Assembly: GCA_007376145.1 (NCBI GenBank) | Contig: VMFP01000001.1 | Location: forward strand, 122,835-186,834 | Origin: Parcubacteria group bacterium Gr01-1014_38 | GTDB lineage: Bacteria; Patescibacteriota; Andersenbacteria; UBA10190; CAIZMI01 | Reading direction: 5' to 3' | DNA length: 64,000 nt | In this document: one piece after another, positions 22,158 through 50,045 of the stretch | How positions within the stretch are numbered: the first letter of the stretch is position 1 | Layout of the letters: each line of letters opens with the position of its first letter | Position numbers and translations under genes: made by a program | Notes under the pieces: model-generated | Databases searched by the model: none | The model's input: the letters and a program-made list of their open reading frames with translations, nothing else | Told to the model about the DNA's origin: nothing

Positions 22158-22258
22158 CACGTGCCCGGCGCCCATGATAATTTCGTTTGCTGCTTCGTGT
22201 TGCTACTTCAGGGAAGTAGCGGGTGTCCTTTCACAATCTGAATCTGGAGGAACAAGCG

Positions 22259-23173
22259 ATGAGAAGATCCTTTCTAGAAAAGCTTGCTCGGTATTCCGAC
22301 GATTACTCTGCGGAGTGCCTCGTTCCCACCGGCAGCTTTTCGCAAGGCTGCTCAGTGGCCGATCACCGAAAAATGTGTGAGGAGTTTGATTACCACGTGT
22401 ATCCTCTTTCTTGGTTTGATGATGAGACTCCACAGCGACGGGTGTTCCTCTCCGCCTACTACATTGATCGCTACCCCATTACTAACGCGCAGTTTGCCCT
22501 TTTCGTTCTTGAGACTGGTTACGAGACAGTGGCTGAACAGTCGGAAGGTGGACTGGTGTTCACTCGGCGCGGGTGGGAGTGGGTAAGAGGTGCGTGCTGG
22601 TACAGACCGACGGGTCCGCGAAGTTCCGTCGGCAGGCGTCAGTATCACCCCGTTTGTCAGATTTCTTGGCGTGACGCTCATTCCTACGCCGCTTGGAGAA
22701 GTAAAAGGCTTCCAACGGAGTCTGAATGGGAAAAGGCCTGCCGAGGCACTGATGGAAGAAGATGGCCGTGGTCTAATGAGTGGAAACCAGGTGTTTGTGG
22801 CTCAGTAGAATATCACGCAAAAGCCAACTTTAACACTCGAGAGGAGTGGCGCAACTGGTGGGAATCAGTCTATCGGCCCCACCTTACTTTCACCAAGCCG
22901 GTTGGATCTTACCCTAGGTCAGTGTCTGTGTATGGCATCCACGACATGGTGGGCTGTTTGTACCAATGGGTAGAAGACTGGTATGGCCCCTACAGCAGGA
23001 AAGCTACGTATAGAGGAGAATACGGTTACTTTCTAGGAAGAAACACGCTGAAGGTTGTGCGTGGCGGATGCTGGATGAATTTTAAGTTCCAAGTCAGAAC
23101 GTGTGAACGCATGGCGTCAGCCCCGCTTGTCTCTACATTCGTGCACGGTTTCCGATGCGCTCGCACCGCGTAG
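22259..23173 (+). CDS. FGE-sulfatase (SUMF1/DUF323) domain protein
   Basis: YYIDRYPITNAQF, HPVCQISWRDAHSYAAWRSKRLPTESEWEKACRG, GIHDMVGCLYQWVEDWY, VVRGGCW...GFRCAR. The start is placed at ATG 22259 (GGAGG 8 nt upstream) rather than GTG 22223. Confidence 0.85.
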   Translation: MRRSFLEKLARYSDDYSAECLVPTGSFSQGCSVADHRKMCEEFDYHVYPLSWFDDETPQRRVFLSAYYIDRYPITNAQFALFVLETGYETVAEQSEGGLVFTRRGWEWVRGACWYRPTGPRSSVGRRQYHPVCQISWRDAHSYAAWRSKRLPTESEWEKACRGTDGRRWPWSNEWKPGVCGSVEYHAKANFNTREEWRNWWESVYRPHLTFTKPVGSYPRSVSVYGIHDMVGCLYQWVEDWYGPYSRKATYRGEYGYFLGRNTLKVVRGGCWMNFKFQVRTCERMASAPLVSTFVHGFRCARTA

Positions 23174-23281
23174 GACGGTTTGTGTTCGGTTTTACCGAGT
23201 CTCAGATTTATACACAATCGAGTCAGAAATCAGGCTGAGTCTTGGTGGCTCGGCGTAATGACAAAGAAAGAGAGGCATCCT

Positions 23282-24034
23282 ATGGACAGACCTAATGTAG
23301 GACTCGTTGTTACAGGTGGAAGTACCGGTATCGGTCGCAGCATTGCTCTCGAATATGCTGCAGCCTATCCAAAGTCGAGCGTTGTCCTTGTTGCACGGGA
23401 GAAAGGTAGGCTCACAAAGGTTAAAGGAGAGATTGAGAGGCGCGGATCAAGGTGTATTGTATATGCAGGCGACCTGCGTGACCCAGCATTCATTCAGGGT
23501 TTCATTAGGGACATAAGGCTTCGAGGTCTCTCGATAACCCATCTGGTGAATAATGTGGGGTCGTCGCGCGAAGGCTCAGGAATTCTGAGCGTCACCGGGG
23601 AGGAGTGGTACGCTTCACTTCAGCTGAACCTAAACGCCGCATTTTTCTGCGCTAAAGGCGTGGTCGAACTGATGCTAAGCAAGGGTTGGGAGGGGGCGAT
23701 TGTGAATGTAAGCGCAATTGCTGCCCGTATCGGAATGCCTAAAGTTGCATTCACAACAGCGAAAGCTGGGCTGATTGGAATGACACGGTCACTCGCTCGT
23801 GTATTAGCCGCTCATGGAATTCGAGTGAACGCAGTTCTCCCTGGAGCTATCGATACTCCCGCAACTCGACATTGGACAGAAAGACAACGCAAGGACATCT
23901 GCCGGAAGATTCCTCTCGCCCGCATCGGCAAGCCCGAGGAAGTGGCTTCGGTCGTGGTATTCCTGCTTTCAGAGAAAGCCTCGTACGTTACCGGCCAGAC
24001 CATTGACGTTAATGGTGGCTGGCACATGAAATGA
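23282..24034 (+). CDS. short-chain dehydrogenase/reductase (FabG-like) with FxxxK in place of YxxxK
   Basis: TGGSTGIG, NNVG, NVSAIAA, VAFTTAKAG, PGAIDTP. ATG 23282 has GAGG 6 nt upstream; ATG 23258 is an alternative. Confidence 0.87.
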   Translation: MDRPNVGLVVTGGSTGIGRSIALEYAAAYPKSSVVLVAREKGRLTKVKGEIERRGSRCIVYAGDLRDPAFIQGFIRDIRLRGLSITHLVNNVGSSREGSGILSVTGEEWYASLQLNLNAAFFCAKGVVELMLSKGWEGAIVNVSAIAARIGMPKVAFTTAKAGLIGMTRSLARVLAAHGIRVNAVLPGAIDTPATRHWTERQRKDICRKIPLARIGKPEEVASVVVFLLSEKASYVTGQTIDVNGGWHMK

Positions 24035-24050
24035 GGTTACTGATTATTCC

Positions 24051-24083
24051 GAGCGTATTCACGCGGTGGGTACGCTCTTTTCT
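24051..24083 (+). terminator. intrinsic terminator after the SDR gene
   Basis: GAGCGTA-ttcacgcggtggg-TACGCTC followed by TTTTCT. Confidence 0.68.
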
Positions 24084-24267
24084 GTGTCTGTACAAAGATG
24101 GATGATGTGGAATATGCTTTCGTGGCTTCGAAGAGATTCTGAGGCAACGGACCTAGTACCGCTTTCGTATCAGTAGTGCAAAAAAGTGCTTGAAAGACAG
24201 ATTCGTGACCTTTCACTGAAGCTTATGATTCAATGCCAACCACGAGATTCAAAAAGTCAACCAAGTA

Positions 24268-24765
24268 ATGTTTATCGTCTCTATGGGGAATAACGCGTTG
24301 GTAGAGTGTACAACTCTCTACGGGGATCGGAAGTTAGTGAAAGCAAGTGCACTGACGTTCCGCCCAGCGGCTTACGCACTTGTTTTGCGTGAAGGCAAGT
24401 TGTTGCTCGTAAATACGCGGAGTACAGGAAAGTGGTTCTTCCCGGGCGGCGCAATCGAGCGGGGGGAGACGATGAGAGATGGTATCCTGCGAGAGGTCCG
24501 GGAGGAAACCGGAGTCGAAATTGAAGTCAGGGAATTGTTTCAGTGTAAAGAGAGCTTTTTTTACTATGATCCTTGGGACGCCGCATACCATAGTTTCTCC
24601 TTCTTCTACACCGCCGTTCCAAAGACCTTTGAATTGACGGAAGCGTATAACGCAGAGGATAAGGAGGCGAAAAGTCCCGCGTGGGTAGACGTGAAACAAC
24701 TTAAAGCAAGCGATTTCCAGTTACTCGCGGGAGAAATATTTGAGGCATTCATTCGCACAACATAA
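24268..24765 (+). CDS. NUDIX hydrolase
   Basis: The Nudix box G-x5-E-x7-REUxEExGU is present as GGAIERGETMRDGILREVREETGV. Confidence 0.88.
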   Translation: MFIVSMGNNALVECTTLYGDRKLVKASALTFRPAAYALVLREGKLLLVNTRSTGKWFFPGGAIERGETMRDGILREVREETGVEIEVRELFQCKESFFYYDPWDAAYHSFSFFYTAVPKTFELTEAYNAEDKEAKSPAWVDVKQLKASDFQLLAGEIFEAFIRTT

Positions 24766-24826: not shown

Positions 24827-25546
24827 TCAATCGGTGGGCGTCACGTGACTTTCCGGCGGATACTTTTGCGCCCACAGTTGAAGCCAGGTGGCTTGTCTCG
24901 CGTTTACCCCGCCGCGGAACGCGCGGGATTCCTGAATGGCAAGGTCCATCGGCCATCCTTGTACGGCGTACCGGTAGAGCGCGGTCATGGTCCCCGTGCG
25001 GCCGATGCCGCCACGGCAGTGGATGTGGACCGGCTGGTTCTCCGGATTCGTGACAAACCACAGGAACTGCTCGGCTTGATCTTCGGTCGGCGGCTGTCCG
25101 TCTGTGAGCGGGATGTGGAGATACGTCAGCCCGAGATTGGTAAAGCCTTGGAGTTTCGCATCGTCGCCAATTTCTCCGCGTTCCCCATCCGTTCGGAGAT
25201 TGACGACCGATTTCCACCCACGCTCTTTCAGCCAGGTAAACTCTGAAACGAGAGGCTGGCCGGAGCGCGAGAATACCCCCGACACCGGTATAGCAAAGGA
25301 CCAGAATCCGTAGGCCGACGGCGCATCGTCCGGAATCTGTTCACGCGGTCCGACGAAGGAGACTCGCTCGGCGACTGGCGCCGCCGAAGATCCGGGGCTG
25401 ACCAACGATGCGGCTGGCGTGGATAACGCCTCTGGCGCGTTTCCCCCGGTGCGCATCCGCCATCCGGGGAGGCGCACCAGGGCAACGACACCCGTGACGA
25501 ACGCGAGGAGGGTGACCACCGCGATGCTCAAGCGCAGCGGCCTCAT
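24827..25546 (-). CDS. protein tyrosine / dual-specificity phosphatase family protein with N-terminal anchor
   Basis: CX5R P-loop HIHCRGGIGRTG; N-terminal hydrophobic LRLSIAVVTLLAFVTGVVALV; 4-nt ATGA overlap with the upstream beta-propeller gene. Confidence 0.85.
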   Translation of the reverse strand: MRPLRLSIAVVTLLAFVTGVVALVRLPGWRMRTGGNAPEALSTPAASLVSPGSSAAPVAERVSFVGPREQIPDDAPSAYGFWSFAIPVSGVFSRSGQPLVSEFTWLKERGWKSVVNLRTDGERGEIGDDAKLQGFTNLGLTYLHIPLTDGQPPTEDQAEQFLWFVTNPENQPVHIHCRGGIGRTGTMTALYRYAVQGWPMDLAIQESRAFRGGVNARQATWLQLWAQKYPPESHVTPTD

Positions 25547-26637
25547 GACTCACGGTGATCAAGAGCAAGTGAGGACGGAAATCCGGCCGACGCACCTTGT
25601 CTCGGCGTTCCTGCTCCATACTGCCAGACGATCTCGCGGGTGCGGGGGTTCACTTCAATGATACGGTTGCGGCCCGCCTCGGCAATGAGGACATTCCCGT
25701 TTCCCAGCTTCGCGGCATCTGCCGGGTACTGAAGGCGCGATCCATCCGCGAGCTCGTGGAGCGTCCAAAGAATCTCTCCGCGGTGATTGATTTCAAAGAC
25801 CTCGTTCTTCTGACGGTCCTCGAGCACAAACGTGCTTTCCACGGTCGGGAATACGTGCTGGAGCCATTTCGCGTCCGGTTTCGTCCACTCCCAGAGGATC
25901 TCCTGCGTGGCGCGGTCAACGAGAATCAGTTTCTTTTCCAGGGTGTCAGTGATGAGAATCTGCTGCCCGTTCTCGAGAGGGATTGCGTGGGTATTGCCAC
26001 GGAGGAGACCGGGGCCTGTTCCCATGGTCAGCGTTTTTCCATACTGCCAGACGACGTCATTCGTCCTCTGGTCCACAACAATCACTCGTCGGTTGTTTCC
26101 GTCGTTGATGAGCACTTCATGGTCGTTGAGCTTGAAGGCTTTGTCTGGCTGGTGGAGGTAGCCCTTCCCATGTCCCTGGACGCCGCGGACGCCGTACTGC
26201 CAGACCAGCGCGTGGGTCTTCCGATCAAGTTCTTGCACCATCATGCCTTCCCCATCCGCGATGATGAGATTCCCGTTCGGCGCAGCGGTGACGTACTCGA
26301 TGTGGACACTGTAACTCCGCAGGGGGATCGGCGGGCTCGCCATGTGCTACTCCCAGACGCGTTCTCCCGCGCGGTTCACCGCGTATACGGTGTTGCCGGT
26401 AAAGTTCGAGATCCAGAGGGTGGTGAACCCTGCTTGGGGAAAGAACGGAGGTTGGCGGGTTGCGAGCGGAAGAGCGATGCGGTCGCGCGCGATCCAGAAC
26501 CCGATGCCCAGCGCGGCAATCGCCAGCACGACGAGGAGAAGACGGGGCACCCACGGCATGAGTATTGCTGTGCTGTTCTTAAGCATAGCGGACGTTGCGC
26601 AGCAGCACATTTCGCGAATGAAAAGAACCCGCGGCAA
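25543..26637 (-). pseudogene. membrane-anchored beta-propeller gene interrupted by one in-frame TAG (26349..26347)
   Basis: ORFs 26347..26637 and 25543..26343 are in the same frame, separated only by TAG-CAC. The blade-end motif (V/I)(V/L)W(Q/E)(Y/W/L) recurs six times, and the stop falls exactly at the Y/W/L position of the first blade (GERVWE-stop-H). The downstream 266 codons could still be expressed from ATG 26343. Confidence 0.7.
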
Positions 26638-26664
26638 CCAGTGGCTGTCGCGGGAGTGTTGGAA

Positions 26665-26997
26665 CTACCCTGCGGGGGAGACGACGCTCTGCCTCAGGAC
26701 ACGGGACACAAACCCTGCGAGATCCTCGACCGTTACCAGTGAGGGGATCGTCGCGATGATGTTCGCCAGGCACTGTCTCCGTTTCTCGAGCGAAGGGCCA
26801 GGGAGACCTCGGATGGTGGCGATCAGGTCCTCGGCAGTGTGCACCTTTTGCTTTCCGAGCTCTCCTGCAGCCTGGGCGAGTGCAGCGGTACCCCTCGGGA
26901 CAATTTCCGTCAGCTGCGTACAGAACCCGGTGATGTGCGATTCTTCCCACCCACGGATGTCTTCCGGTGTCGGCCACGCGCTTGGGGACTCTTCCAC
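26665..26997 (-). CDS. hypothetical protein, 110 aa
   Basis: GTG 26997. Codon third positions are G/C-rich like the neighbours. It is the first gene of the apparent 110aa / beta-propeller / phosphatase string. No motif recognised. Confidence 0.5.
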   Translation of the reverse strand: MEESPSAWPTPEDIRGWEESHITGFCTQLTEIVPRGTAALAQAAGELGKQKVHTAEDLIATIRGLPGPSLEKRRQCLANIIATIPSLVTVEDLAGFVSRVLRQSVVSPAG

Positions 26998-46382: not shown

Positions 46383-47531
46383 CTACCGTAGAAATCCCGA
46401 CTGGGAAACTATCCGCACCTCGCGTCGTTGCCAGGTGTTCCAGGCGTCCGCCACGAATGCGCGGATCCCCTGACGGAAGCGCTCCGCCGCGAATCGTGCG
46501 GCGTGGGCGCGAATGGTCTCTCGGTCGTACGAACCTTCGTTCTCCAAGAAGCGCCGGACGCAGTCCGCCAGCAGTTCTTCGATGGGCGCGTCAAAGAATT
46601 CGCCGGTGATTCCCTCGACGACAGTTTCGGTGGCTCCGCCGCGGCGCAGTGCGAGCACCGGCGTTCCCTGCGCCATCGCTTCAATGGGAACCAGTCCAAA
46701 GTCATCATCGCTTGGGAACAGTACCGCCCGCGCTCCGGCGTACAGCGCCACGAGTTCTTCATCAGGGACGAACCCGCGGAACGATATCGTCGGGCCCTGC
46801 AGGCGTCGCACCGTCGTCGCCTCCCGTCCCTCGCCGACCACGACGAGGGGAAGTTCGAGCTTATTGAAGGTATCGAGGACGACACGCACGCCTTTGTACG
46901 GCGACAGGCGGCTCACGAAGAGAAAGTACCGCCGAGGGTCGGATTCGCCTTGGGCGGCACGCGGGGTAAGCGGCTGGCTGAGCGGTGGCGGGAGCACTGC
47001 GGCTTCGCGCCGGTAGTACTTTTGAATCCCCGCCCTGGTGGTTTCGGAATTCGCGAGGAAGAGATCCACGCGGCGCGCCGCTGCCCGGTCCCACAGGCGC
47101 AGTCCGTGCATGAGCGTCTGGAAGAGTCCGCGACGGATCGTCCCCGAAGGGAATTCCTCCAGCAGCTCGTGGTACGCATCCCAGAGGAAGCGCGTCGGCG
47201 AGTGGCAGTAGCAAATGTGGAGCGTTCCGGGACGGGTGACGATCCCCTTCGCGAATCCTGACGCGCTGCTCACCACGACGTCGTACGCGGAGAGATCGAA
47301 CGTTTCCGCCGCGATCGGGAAGAGCGGAAGGTGCGCCCTGGACCGCCGGAGGACGCGCGGGAGTCCCTGGAGGAACGAGGTGGTGAGTTTCTCTGGTGGG
47401 AGGAACGGGGCGCGGAGCCGCGTTTCAAGAGTGTAGACCGGTGCGCCCGGAAATGCCGCGATGAGTTCCACGAGGACGCGCTCCGCACCCCCGAGCGTGG
47501 TGAGAGACTCGTGGACGAGCGCCAGCTGCAT
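46383..47531 (-). CDS. GT4 (GT-B fold) glycosyltransferase
   Basis: MQLALVHESLTTLGGAERV... and the C-terminal EX7E region FPSDDDFGLVPIEAMAQGTPVLA. Confidence 0.88.
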   Translation of the reverse strand: MQLALVHESLTTLGGAERVLVELIAAFPGAPVYTLETRLRAPFLPPEKLTTSFLQGLPRVLRRSRAHLPLFPIAAETFDLSAYDVVVSSASGFAKGIVTRPGTLHICYCHSPTRFLWDAYHELLEEFPSGTIRRGLFQTLMHGLRLWDRAAARRVDLFLANSETTRAGIQKYYRREAAVLPPPLSQPLTPRAAQGESDPRRYFLFVSRLSPYKGVRVVLDTFNKLELPLVVVGEGREATTVRRLQGPTISFRGFVPDEELVALYAGARAVLFPSDDDFGLVPIEAMAQGTPVLALRRGGATETVVEGITGEFFDAPIEELLADCVRRFLENEGSYDRETIRAHAARFAAERFRQGIRAFVADAWNTWQRREVRIVSQSGFLR

Positions 47532-47537
47532 GTGCGC

Positions 47538-48548
47538 TCACCGCGCCACGACGAGACTCCGCCGGTACGCGGGGAGATTTTCCAGGGCCATGCCGATTCC
47601 CTGGATCACGCAGCGCAGGGGGTCGTCTGCCACCGTGCAGGGGACCATCGTGATCTTCGCGATGAGCTTGTCCATGTTGCTCAAGAGGGCGGTCCCTCCG
47701 GTGAGGACAATCCCCTTGTCAATGATGTCGGCGGCGAGTTCCGGCGGGGTTTCTTGGAGCACCTGGCGTGCCGTGTGCGTAATCGTTTCGAGTTCTTCCT
47801 GCATGGCCTCGGTGACTTTGTTCGAGGTGATGGTCACTTCCTTCGGAAGACCCGTTGCGACGTCCCGGCCGCGGATCTCGTGCGGACGATCTTCCTCGGT
47901 TGGGGTCGCAGAGCCGATCGCGATCTTGATCTCCTCCGCGGTGCGTTCGCCAATCGCCAAGCCGTACTTTTTTCGCACGTATTCAGCGATTGCAGCATCG
48001 AGCCGGACGCCGCCGACGCGCGCCGAGGCGGTCGCGACCAAGCCGCCGAGCGAGATCATCGCCGCTTCCGTGACCCCGCCACCCATGTGGACGATCATGT
48101 GGCCGGACGACTCCGCAATCGGCAGACCCGCGCCGATCGCCGCCGCCACCGGTTGCTTGACCAGGTAGACGCGTCGCGCGCCTGCGCGCATGGCGACTTC
48201 GAAGACCGCGCGGCGCTCGGTCGAGGTGATCCCTGCCGGGACCGACACCATGACTTCGGGACGGAACACGCGGAAGGTGACGCCACCGACGCGCTCCAGG
48301 AAGAGTTCCAGCATTGCTTCGGTAACGCGGAAGTCAGCGATGGCCCCTTCGCGCAATGGCTGGGAGGCCTGAATGTTCTCTGGTGTGCGCCCGAGCATCT
48401 CCTTTGCCGCTTGACCGATGGCGAGGACCCGATGGTCATCAAGGGCGAGCGCGACGACCGACGGCTCGTGGATGACGATCCCGCGACGAGGCAAGTACAC
48501 GATGGTCTTCGTGGTGCCAAGGTCAATCCCGACGCGGCGCGTCAGCAT
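47538..48548 (-). CDS. mreB: rod shape-determining protein MreB
   Basis: ATG 48548 gives MLTRRVGIDLGTTKTIVYLPRRGIVIHEPSVVA..., an actin-fold ATPase motif. Confidence 0.93.
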   Translation of the reverse strand: MLTRRVGIDLGTTKTIVYLPRRGIVIHEPSVVALALDDHRVLAIGQAAKEMLGRTPENIQASQPLREGAIADFRVTEAMLELFLERVGGVTFRVFRPEVMVSVPAGITSTERRAVFEVAMRAGARRVYLVKQPVAAAIGAGLPIAESSGHMIVHMGGGVTEAAMISLGGLVATASARVGGVRLDAAIAEYVRKKYGLAIGERTAEEIKIAIGSATPTEEDRPHEIRGRDVATGLPKEVTITSNKVTEAMQEELETITHTARQVLQETPPELAADIIDKGIVLTGGTALLSNMDKLIAKITMVPCTVADDPLRCVIQGIGMALENLPAYRRSLVVAR

Positions 48549-48590
48549 AGTTGCAGGGTACCAAGGTATTCTGCTAGAAGGAAAGTGCTC

Positions 48591-50045
48591 GTGCATCCAA
48601 CAACGCGACGCGCCTTCCGCACGATGGCGTGGGTGATCTTCCTTGTGGGGTCACCCCTTCTCTTGGCCTATGCCTGGGGGTACCGCGTGTCGCTGTCGCA
48701 CCCCCGTGCATCGCTCGTTCCTGCCGGACCGACGGTTGGCGCGATGGTCATCCGCTCCATCCCGCGCGGCGCGCGTGTGCTCCTTGATGGGCGTGTGGTC
48801 GACGAGCGCACTCCCGCCGGCATCAGCAGGATTCCTGTCGGGGTGCACCTGGTACGGATTGAGAAGCAGGGGTATCGGCCGTACGAGAAGCGACTCGAGG
48901 TGTTCGGCGGACAGGTGGCCGATCTCCTTCACGTGCGGTTGATTCCCCAGACCATCGAGGAGGAAATTGTCCGCACCGGAGTATCCGGCGTGTGGATCTC
49001 GCCCGATGAACGCTGGGTGATTCTCCGGGAAGAGCCGCTGCTCACCATTCTCCCCCGGCGCGTGCTCACCACCCTCTCGCCCGAGAGAACGGTGCGCGAG
49101 GCTGATGGTCTCCAGGTCCGCCTGCCCCGCCACCGGACCGGCGAGATCGCGTTCTTCTGGGCGCCGAGTGGGGAGAGCGTGGCGGTTGGTCTGCACCGGG
49201 CGGAAGAGACCGAGCAGATGACGTTCTTCCCAGACAGTCTCGCGCTGATCGATCTCGCCGATGGCCGACTCCGGCCGATGCCGCCGCGGACCAAGCTGGT
49301 GGGATGGAGTCCCGTCGGGCCAGAGCGCGTCCTCCTCCTCACGGCGGAGGGAGACCTGCTGGGGCTTCCCGCGCAGGCCACGACGCCAGAGAAACTCGCC
49401 TCCGGCATTCTCGCAGCGGCGATTCATCCTCGCGGCATCCTCGTCCAGCGCGCGACGCAAGGTGCGAGCGAACCACCCTTTGGTTTCGTGCGCGACGGAG
49501 GAGAATTTCAACCCTTCACACCACCGTTTCCTGAACCGGCCGGGGCGCTGCAGGTTTCTCCGGAGGGAACTCTCGCGGGGGTATCGAAGGACGGAACGCT
49601 GTTCCTCTTCACTGCGGAGGATCAGGCCTGGCGAGCCGTCGCGCAGGGCGTGCGCCGCTTCGCCTGGTCTCCCGACGGTCAGAAGCTGCTCATCCAGGAA
49701 TCCGCGTTCGATGTCTCGGTGCTGAACGTGTCGGAGGATCGCAGCGTCTTAAAAAGGCTTCAGCCGGAATTTCTCCTGCGGATGTCACTCCCTCTCCGGA
49801 ATCTCCAATGGTTCCCGGACAGTCAACATCTCCTCTATTTCGATCAGGATATTCTTCGTCTCCTCGACATCGATCCCCGTGGCGGGCATCGAACCGAGGA
49901 CCTCATCTCCGTTGATCGTGGTGGTGCCCTCGCCGTCGTTTTCGAGGGCGGTGCGCTCGTCACCGTGACGGCACGCCGTTCCGTCTCCGACCGCTCAGCG
50001 GATGTCCTCCTTCGTCTCTTCCTCCGGACGCCGGACGACCGCTAA
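48591..50045 (+). CDS. membrane-anchored PEGA-domain plus TolB-like repeat protein
   Basis: Only the 3' third of the 904-aa ORF-track entry is real. GTG 48591 is preceded by AAGGA 8 nt upstream. The basic N-terminus plus TM (MAWVIFLVGSPLLLAYAW) is followed by a PEGA-like RIPVGVHLVRIEKQGYRPYEKRLEV, then SPDERW, APSGES, SPEGT, SPDGQK repeats. ATG 48624 is an alternative. Confidence 0.75.
   Translation: MHPTTRRAFRTMAWVIFLVGSPLLLAYAWGYRVSLSHPRASLVPAGPTVGAMVIRSIPRGARVLLDGRVVDERTPAGISRIPVGVHLVRIEKQGYRPYEKRLEVFGGQVADLLHVRLIPQTIEEEIVRTGVSGVWISPDERWVILREEPLLTILPRRVLTTLSPERTVREADGLQVRLPRHRTGEIAFFWAPSGESVAVGLHRAEETEQMTFFPDSLALIDLADGRLRPMPPRTKLVGWSPVGPERVLLLTAEGDLLGLPAQATTPEKLASGILAAAIHPRGILVQRATQGASEPPFGFVRDGGEFQPFTPPFPEPAGALQVSPEGTLAGVSKDGTLFLFTAEDQAWRAVAQGVRRFAWSPDGQKLLIQESAFDVSVLNVSEDRSVLKRLQPEFLLRMSLPLRNLQWFPDSQHLLYFDQDILRLLDIDPRGGHRTEDLISVDRGGALAVVFEGGALVTVTARRSVSDRSADVLLRLFLRTPDDR

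Follow-up and report, generated by a model that had tools for sequence, protein, structure and literature searches.

A probable recent CAG-to-TAG nonsense mutation in a membrane-anchored beta-propeller gene of Parcubacteria group bacterium Gr01-1014_38

Introduction

What is a single in-frame amber codon doing inside a beta-propeller gene whose two halves both still look coding? The gene lies in a 64,000-nt stretch of contig VMFP01000001.1 from Parcubacteria group bacterium Gr01-1014_38 (the window). A sequence-only reading of the locus had offered a recent nonsense mutation (leaving a pseudogene or a split gene), an assembly or sequencing error, and stop read-through as explanations. We compared the locus with its orthologs, modeled the fold of the product, surveyed how TAG is used in the window, and weighed what the interruption would do to the protein and to the phosphatase gene that follows.

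Results

Two annotated fragments belong to one interrupted gene

Read on the minus strand, the site is ...GGA GAA CGC GTC TGG GAG TAG CAC ATG GCG AGC CCG.... One frame runs on this strand from ATG 26559 to TGA 25543 and is broken by a single stop, TAG 26349..26347. The arrangement first described, two same-frame ORFs separated by TAG-CAC-ATG, is borne out, with exactly one stop between them. The features of the gene are as follows.

26347..26349, minus strand: premature amber codon TAG, read from the sequence; the ortholog codons are CAG, CAG, and CAA
26347..26559, minus strand: 5' fragment of 70 aa (MPWVPR...GERVWE), its start aligned to orthologs, ending at the premature TAG
25543..26343, minus strand: 3' fragment of 266 aa (MASPPIPL...) from the ORF list, ending in TGA, with a PQQ_2 match; the same protein as P0004/TSC73149.1
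26350..26354, minus strand: GGGAG, a Shine-Dalgarno-like pentamer in the upstream context of ATG 26343, 6 nt from it

The closing blade is divided between the two fragments: the 5' fragment supplies its first three beta-strands, after a signal-anchor transmembrane (TM) helix and a linker, and the 3' fragment supplies its C-terminal strand, after five complete blades, and carries no anchor. The codon at which translation could restart, ATG 26343..26341, lies 3 nt past the TAG and is in frame with the upstream ORF. The upstream 70 aa aligned with residues 1-71 of the ortholog P0001 (69% identity; E 9e-32), the alignment stopping just before Gln72, and 97% of the bridged (read-through) product aligned to an ortholog that is uninterrupted and 339 aa long. 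Since the upstream and downstream pieces both align to one ortholog, they are parts of one gene and not a chance arrangement.

The gene most likely starts at ATG 26559 (MPWVPRLLL...) rather than at TTG 26637, because the start Met of the orthologs aligns there; TTG 26637 is the first TTG of the mechanically called ORF. Of the span originally given for the gene, 25543-26637, the frame thus stands and the upper end probably does not. The public record starts the 5' fragment at ATG 26610 (TSC73150.1, 87 aa) and lists the two fragments as "hypothetical proteins" G01um101438_172 (TSC73149.1) and G01um101438_173 (TSC73150.1). The 266-aa fragment is 100% identical to TSC73149.1, [quoted passage not shown]

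An antisense ORF (25597..26742, plus strand) covers the propeller gene and, at 381 aa, exceeds both real fragments in length. This ORF is a spurious shadow of high-GC coding sequence (GC1 > GC3), and a naive longest-ORF caller would choose it, since the true propeller gene is split.

The gene encodes an anchored six-blade propeller

The bridged product matched the Pfam family PQQ_2 (PF13360) with an E value of 5.5e-18 and 65.9 bits, above the gathering score of 27.6. Cut-offs were not reached for the BamB equivalog TIGR03300 (17.9 bits; cut-off, 285.2), the PQQ dehydrogenase model TIGR03075 (20.6 bits; cut-off, 480), or PF01011 (15.6 bits; cut-off, 26.7), and the Pfam NHL repeat scored 19.8 bits with a cut-off of 20. 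The TIGR03300 score, far under its cut-off, rules out identity as BamB, and the "BamB" names that JGI gives to homologs are for this reason domain-level labels only. Identity as a PQQ-dependent dehydrogenase is ruled out by the TIGR03075 and PF01011 scores.

Structure was predicted with AlphaFold2 for P0001, the closest full-length ortholog (84% identity), from a 59-sequence alignment (mean pLDDT, 94.6; pTM, 0.85). The model has an N-terminal TM helix at residues 3-30, a disordered linker, and 24 beta-strands making up six four-stranded blades. Three strands lie at the N-terminal end (48-53, 58-62, and 68-73) and one at the C-terminal end (329-335), with five complete blades between them; the 3' fragment corresponds to strands 90-335. 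Judging from strand order and count, the ring would close by the usual 3+1 "velcro." When the model was compared with the PDB by Foldseek, the best matches were the NHL domains of Thin, TRIM71, and TRIM2 and an archaeal S-layer YVTN propeller (E about 1e-14 to 1e-15; TM score, 0.5-0.76; 13-18% identity), and the target-normalized TM score for NHL was about 0.7. The six blades and the sole membrane anchor in the upstream piece, both proposed from the sequence alone, agree with the 24 strands and the TM helix of this model. The blade-end motifs ALVWQYG, DVVWQYG, EILWEWT, EILWTLH, and EIVWQYG were all found in the translation, and the stop falls at the end of the first repeat motif, as had been described. 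We conclude that the product is a membrane-anchored, presumably extracytoplasmic six-blade PQQ_2/NHL-like beta-propeller.

A database search returned 142 homologs, with named relatives in Andersenbacteria, Pacebacteria, Portnoybacteria, and other CPR bacteria; at 40% identity or more, nearly all homologs are from CPR genomes and metagenomes. One homolog of 57% identity (L021; JAWOBC010000042.1, 140..745) sits on a contig of 13.8 kb that has been binned into a "Thermoplasmatota archaeon" MAG. All other close relatives are CPR bacteria. This contig is probably mis-binned, and transfer is less likely.

The propeller is paired with a tyrosine phosphatase

The neighboring features are as follows.

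24827..25546, minus strand: intact TM-anchored DSP-type protein tyrosine phosphatase (PTPase) gene (PF22741, E 2.9e-23; PF22785, E 6.8e-19)
26665..26997, minus strand: small conserved hypothetical gene of 110 aa, with no Pfam match, ending in TAG
22223..23173, plus strand: FGE-sulfatase-like gene, between CysS and the PTPase gene
23180..24034, plus strand: short-chain dehydrogenase gene, between CysS and the PTPase gene
24268..24765, plus strand: NUDIX hydrolase gene, between CysS and the PTPase gene

The PTPase gene overlaps the end of the propeller gene by 4 nt (ATGA) and keeps the catalytic motif HCRGGIGRTG (HCx5R(T)). The two genes are also adjacent in the loci of relatives, with the same 4-nt overlap in L003 and L004 and with the order reversed in L006, and propeller-PTPase fusions of about 535 aa occur in many CPR relatives (P0025, P0031, P0033, P0035, P0040, P0046, and others). 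Adjacency and fusion together make a Rosetta-stone link, which argues that the propeller and the PTPase work together and suggests a joint extracytoplasmic function; the Lys/Arg-rich N-terminal signal anchors presumably place the joint site outside the membrane.

The three genes between CysS and the PTPase gene have a GC content of 0.53-0.56 compared to about 0.61 in the flanks, and the FGE-sulfatase-like and short-chain dehydrogenase genes fail a codon-usage model trained on the window. In L004, CysS comes directly after the PTPase gene, without the three intervening genes, and 22223..24765 looks like a small acquired insertion. Here, as in L002 and L004, the 110-aa hypothetical gene is flanked by dnaB and the propeller gene. 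It shares the frame of the propeller gene by chance, so that two TAG codons fall within 320 nt in that frame.

Orthologs are uninterrupted and carry Gln at the stop position

We inspected about 35 orthologs (20 aligned proteins and 19 DNA loci, with some overlap), and neither the protein alignment nor the DNA loci showed a split at the position of the stop codon. The closest orthologs, each a single protein (338-380 aa), cover 91-98% of the bridged query at 84%, 81%, and 79% identity. Of the 19 loci searched by tblastn (four reached via protein look-ups and 15 from GTDB representative genomes), none was split at the stop codon, and in 17 a single HSP spans the site without a stop. Synteny is kept, with RecR-DnaB on the opposite strand, the small hypothetical gene, the propeller gene, and the PTPase gene, and the propeller is one gene. 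Comparison at this codon had been proposed from the start, with a natural split at the same place as the finding that would speak against a nonsense mutation; the orthologs are uninterrupted there, in proteins and DNA loci alike, and carry a Gln codon.

Four candidates for natural splits (P0079, P0111, P0073, and P0118) were rejected as the products of a deletion, a frameshift elsewhere, or a contig end. In L006 (P0111; 2248..2520 of the 287-kb contig "contig_29571"), a frameshift lies about 18 codons past the VWEQ motif. In L005 (P0079; 1..330), the TM-anchor ORF is kept in another frame, and the first propeller strands are deleted. Both may have decayed independently, or an assembly indel may explain L006. 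Such 5' damage indicates that members of the family are sometimes lost and does not demonstrate a designed break at the stop position.

The column of the stop is Gln in at least 90% of the 20 aligned orthologs (VWEQHMASPP). The two closest orthologous loci read GAA CAG CAC ATG (L002) and GAG CAG CAC ATG (L003), and the third reads GAA CAA CAG ATG (L004). Because the orthologs carry Gln (CAG, CAG, and CAA) at this column, one substitution away from TAG, the event reads as a single C-to-T transition, CAG>TAG, in a conserved Gln codon. The sequence-only reading was wrong on this point: by analogy with the later internal repeats, it had placed the stop at a conserved aromatic or Leu position and derived it from a Tyr (TAC or TAT) or Trp (TGG) codon.

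The gene shows no decay beyond the stop

An alignment of 59 homologs has 51 columns with at least 95% conservation, and the interrupted gene deviates at none of them (median for family members, 1). Compared with the two closest orthologs, the upstream piece has a dN/dS of 0.17-0.20 and the downstream piece one of 0.07-0.09. With no deviating column, low dN/dS, and the PTPase motif kept, the gene has not decayed beyond the stop, which argues that the mutation is recent. The intact remainder of the propeller gene and the intact PTPase gene fit recency, but they also fit residual function.

TAG is a normal terminator in this lineage

Reassignment of the amber codon (TAG) to Gln is known from genetic code 15 and from recoded phages. 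The tally of TAG at gene ends that had been called for was run on the 64-kb window. Because a GC3-based filter and ungated codon-score calling could not separate sense from antisense frames in DNA of 60% GC, genes were called by codon usage with a greedy nonoverlapping selection, which gave 48 gene-like ORFs. These end in TGA (20), TAA (18), and TAG (10), the counts being approximate. The hypothetical gene upstream of the propeller ends in TAG both here and in its ortholog in L002, at equivalent C termini, and TAG terminates 5 of the 11 genes called in L004. TAG is a normal terminator in this lineage.

Every in-frame stop with coding-like sequence on both sides was then collected from the window. 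Apart from the propeller gene, no coding frame broken by TAG was found in the 64 kb; every other TAG case lies antisense to a longer gene, which accounts for it. Two same-frame "split" pairs, at TGA 47540 and TGA 48653, are not internal stops and were rejected as separate adjacent genes (GT4 and MreB by Pfam). The greedy gene set still miscalls 46.4-50 kb, where Pfam matches put both of these genes on the minus strand. At 46383..48650 (minus strand), the glycosyltransferase gene (GT4), whose stop is TAG, immediately adjoins mreB (ending in TGA) in the same frame, and a stop-to-stop frame of 927 aa on the opposite strand overlaps both genes; only its 3' part, with a PEGA domain (about 48.7 kb to 50045), seems real. 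Gene calling in this region calls for caution.

The window contains no tRNA with a CUA anticodon, its sole tRNA being tRNA-Lys(UUU), and an Rfam scan for a read-through stimulator found nothing. A 123-nt stretch of the RNA (26352..26230), which starts 3 nt ahead of the TAG, folded no better than shuffled sequences (z = +1.03). Since TAG terminates genes, the in-frame instance is single, and no structure was detected, both genome-wide reassignment and programmed read-through are unsupported.

The stop is recorded in several assemblies

Both fragments are recorded from the NCBI, ENA, and Logan assemblies, and the 266-aa ORF occurs on three contigs of three different size classes, with the ENA contig being of MEGAHIT style (k139; 245,521 bp). 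The site, CTGGGAG-T-AGCAC, is neither a homopolymer nor a repeat. That the TAG is seen by different assemblers at such a site makes an assembler artifact unlikely. The option of an assembly or sequencing error is weakened by the presence of the same fragments in all three sources, which possibly share their reads. An exact 29-mer, with the mutated base set to N, was used to look for a variant from the same species and had no matches in JGI metagenome contigs or GTDB representative genomes, and a literature search on the MAG name "Gr01-1014" returned only one paper, which was unrelated. The T at this site may be a majority allele rather than a fixed one.

Predicted consequences of the stop

In the P0001 model, the stop separates the rest of the protein from the TM helix and from three strands of the four-stranded closing blade. 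Translation would terminate after Glu70 and yield an anchor peptide with three orphan beta-strands. Ribosomes could then reinitiate at ATG 26343, 3 nt past the stop. The GGGAG upstream of this ATG arises from the Trp-Glu codons, and the same TGG GAG is present, with no stop after it, in L003; because that locus is unsplit, selection for reinitiation did not produce the motif. Within the window, a Shine-Dalgarno-like motif is found at 11 of 37 first-ATG gene starts. A reinitiated product, having no signal anchor, would stay in the cytoplasm and, missing three of four "velcro" strands, would probably neither fold nor act. A restart of this kind is plausible, and it would leave ribosomes on the transcript to translate the coupled PTPase gene. 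A few ribosomes might also read UAG with a near-cognate Gln-tRNA, which would restore the wild-type protein by coincidence; such trace read-through would be a general property of CAG>TAG mutants and not a feature of this locus.

Because the stop removes the sole membrane anchor and three closing-blade strands, propeller function is likely lost or severely reduced, and the gene is likely a young pseudogene. As far as the model can guide us, a functional extracytoplasmic propeller made from the 266-aa fragment is unlikely.

Discussion

In our judgment, the amber codon is likely a genuine and evolutionarily recent nonsense mutation (CAG>TAG) in the sampled Gr01-1014_38 population. This was the first option listed in the sequence-only reading, and the ortholog and decay evidence supports it. 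We regard it as an ordinary gene-disabling mutation, and neither as a new genetic code nor as a designed split gene.

Formally, the TAG could be a sequencing, consensus, or assembly artifact, or a minority or strain-level allele that entered the consensus, with the functional gene reading CAG. The genome is metagenome assembled, a single-base difference suffices for such an artifact, the assemblies may share the same reads and hence possibly one consensus error, and no second same-species sequence from JGI metagenomes or GTDB representative genomes matched for comparison. The recurrence of the 266-aa and 87-aa ORFs in NCBI, ENA, and Logan, on three contigs of different size classes, and the position of the stop outside any homopolymer or repeat count against this explanation, and we consider it unlikely. 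A functional split gene, in which the anchor peptide and the reinitiated 266-aa fragment are both made and work separately or reassemble, draws on the favorable geometry of a stop and a start 3 nt apart with GGGAG just upstream, on the intact 3' ORF that still overlaps an intact PTPase gene, and on the translational coupling to that gene that reinitiation would preserve. Against it, no inspected locus or protein is split at this place, and the Shine-Dalgarno-like motif and the ATG simply belong to conserved codons (Trp-Glu and Met) that unsplit orthologs also have. Moreover, the downstream piece, with no signal or anchor, would be separated by the membrane from the three N-terminal strands that the closing blade of the P0001 model requires together with the C-terminal one. 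A working split is on these grounds very unlikely.

Useful decoding of the TAG as Gln, through a suppressor tRNA, a code-15-like reassignment (possibly supplied by a phage), or programmed read-through, would fit the ancestral residue, which is exactly the one that TAG specifies in known amber reassignments, and the stop is followed by a C. In E. coli, Gln is among the residues that near-cognate decoding places at UAG (PMC4333366). An ancestral Gln is, however, to be expected by chance, as CAG>TAG is among the commonest nonsense routes, and this is a single in-frame TAG among roughly 48 gene-like ORFs, about a fifth of which TAG terminates, with one such stop position common to an ortholog. The stop is conserved in no relative, the RNA downstream of it folds no better than shuffled sequence, and the window has no tRNA-CUA, only tRNA-Lys. 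We give this explanation next to no credence. Read-through had been proposed earlier, and as a programmed mechanism it is unsupported on the same evidence: the unconserved stop, the unremarkable fold, and the use of TAG as a terminator elsewhere. Pyrrolysine is rejected, given that the ancestral residue is Gln, the event is single, and TAG works as a terminator. It is extremely unlikely, too, that the amber codon leaves the gene active by being decoded as Gln often enough to be of physiological use, whether near-cognate tRNA-Gln reads it in a weak TAG-C context or a suppressor tRNA does so, its gene lying in another part of the genome or in a phage. If it were so, a CPR bacterium would keep an envelope propeller at a reduced, tunable level, while reinitiation at ATG 26343 would keep the coupled PTPase gene translated.

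With a recent nonsense mutation as the preferred reading, TSC73149.1 and TSC73150.1 are halves of one disrupted gene, and a pseudogene or internal-stop label is due. Scans for recoding should be read with caution, as a TAG at an ancestral Gln mimics amber-to-Gln recoding where, as here, a lone CAG>TAG transition has taken place. Beyond annotation, the mutation itself has little significance. The propeller-phosphatase family, with close homologs almost only in CPR bacteria, appears biologically more interesting than the stop codon, and the pairing may merit a study of its own.

Among known systems, the propeller gene is close to the six-blade propellers of the PQQ_2 (PF13360, "BamB-like") and NHL-YVTN kinds, with a PQQ_2 profile match above the gathering score, the six four-stranded blades and 3+1 velcro of the model, and its best fold matches in the PDB. 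It differs in its N-terminal signal anchor and in being paired or fused with an extracytoplasmic DSP-type tyrosine phosphatase. Like the TAG-to-Gln reassignment of code 15 and recoded phages, the locus has TAG where relatives have Gln; unlike it, the window offers one instance, TAG is still a terminator, and no suppressor tRNA is seen there. The closest likeness is to an ordinary CAG>TAG pseudogene, with a single C>T change, uninterrupted orthologs, an unconserved stop, no recoding signal, and two halves that still look coding, and nothing is materially different. The details that stand out from such a pseudogene are the conserved in-frame ATG 3 nt later, the Shine-Dalgarno-like GGGAG, and a cut that parts the anchor and its three strands exactly from the remaining propeller.
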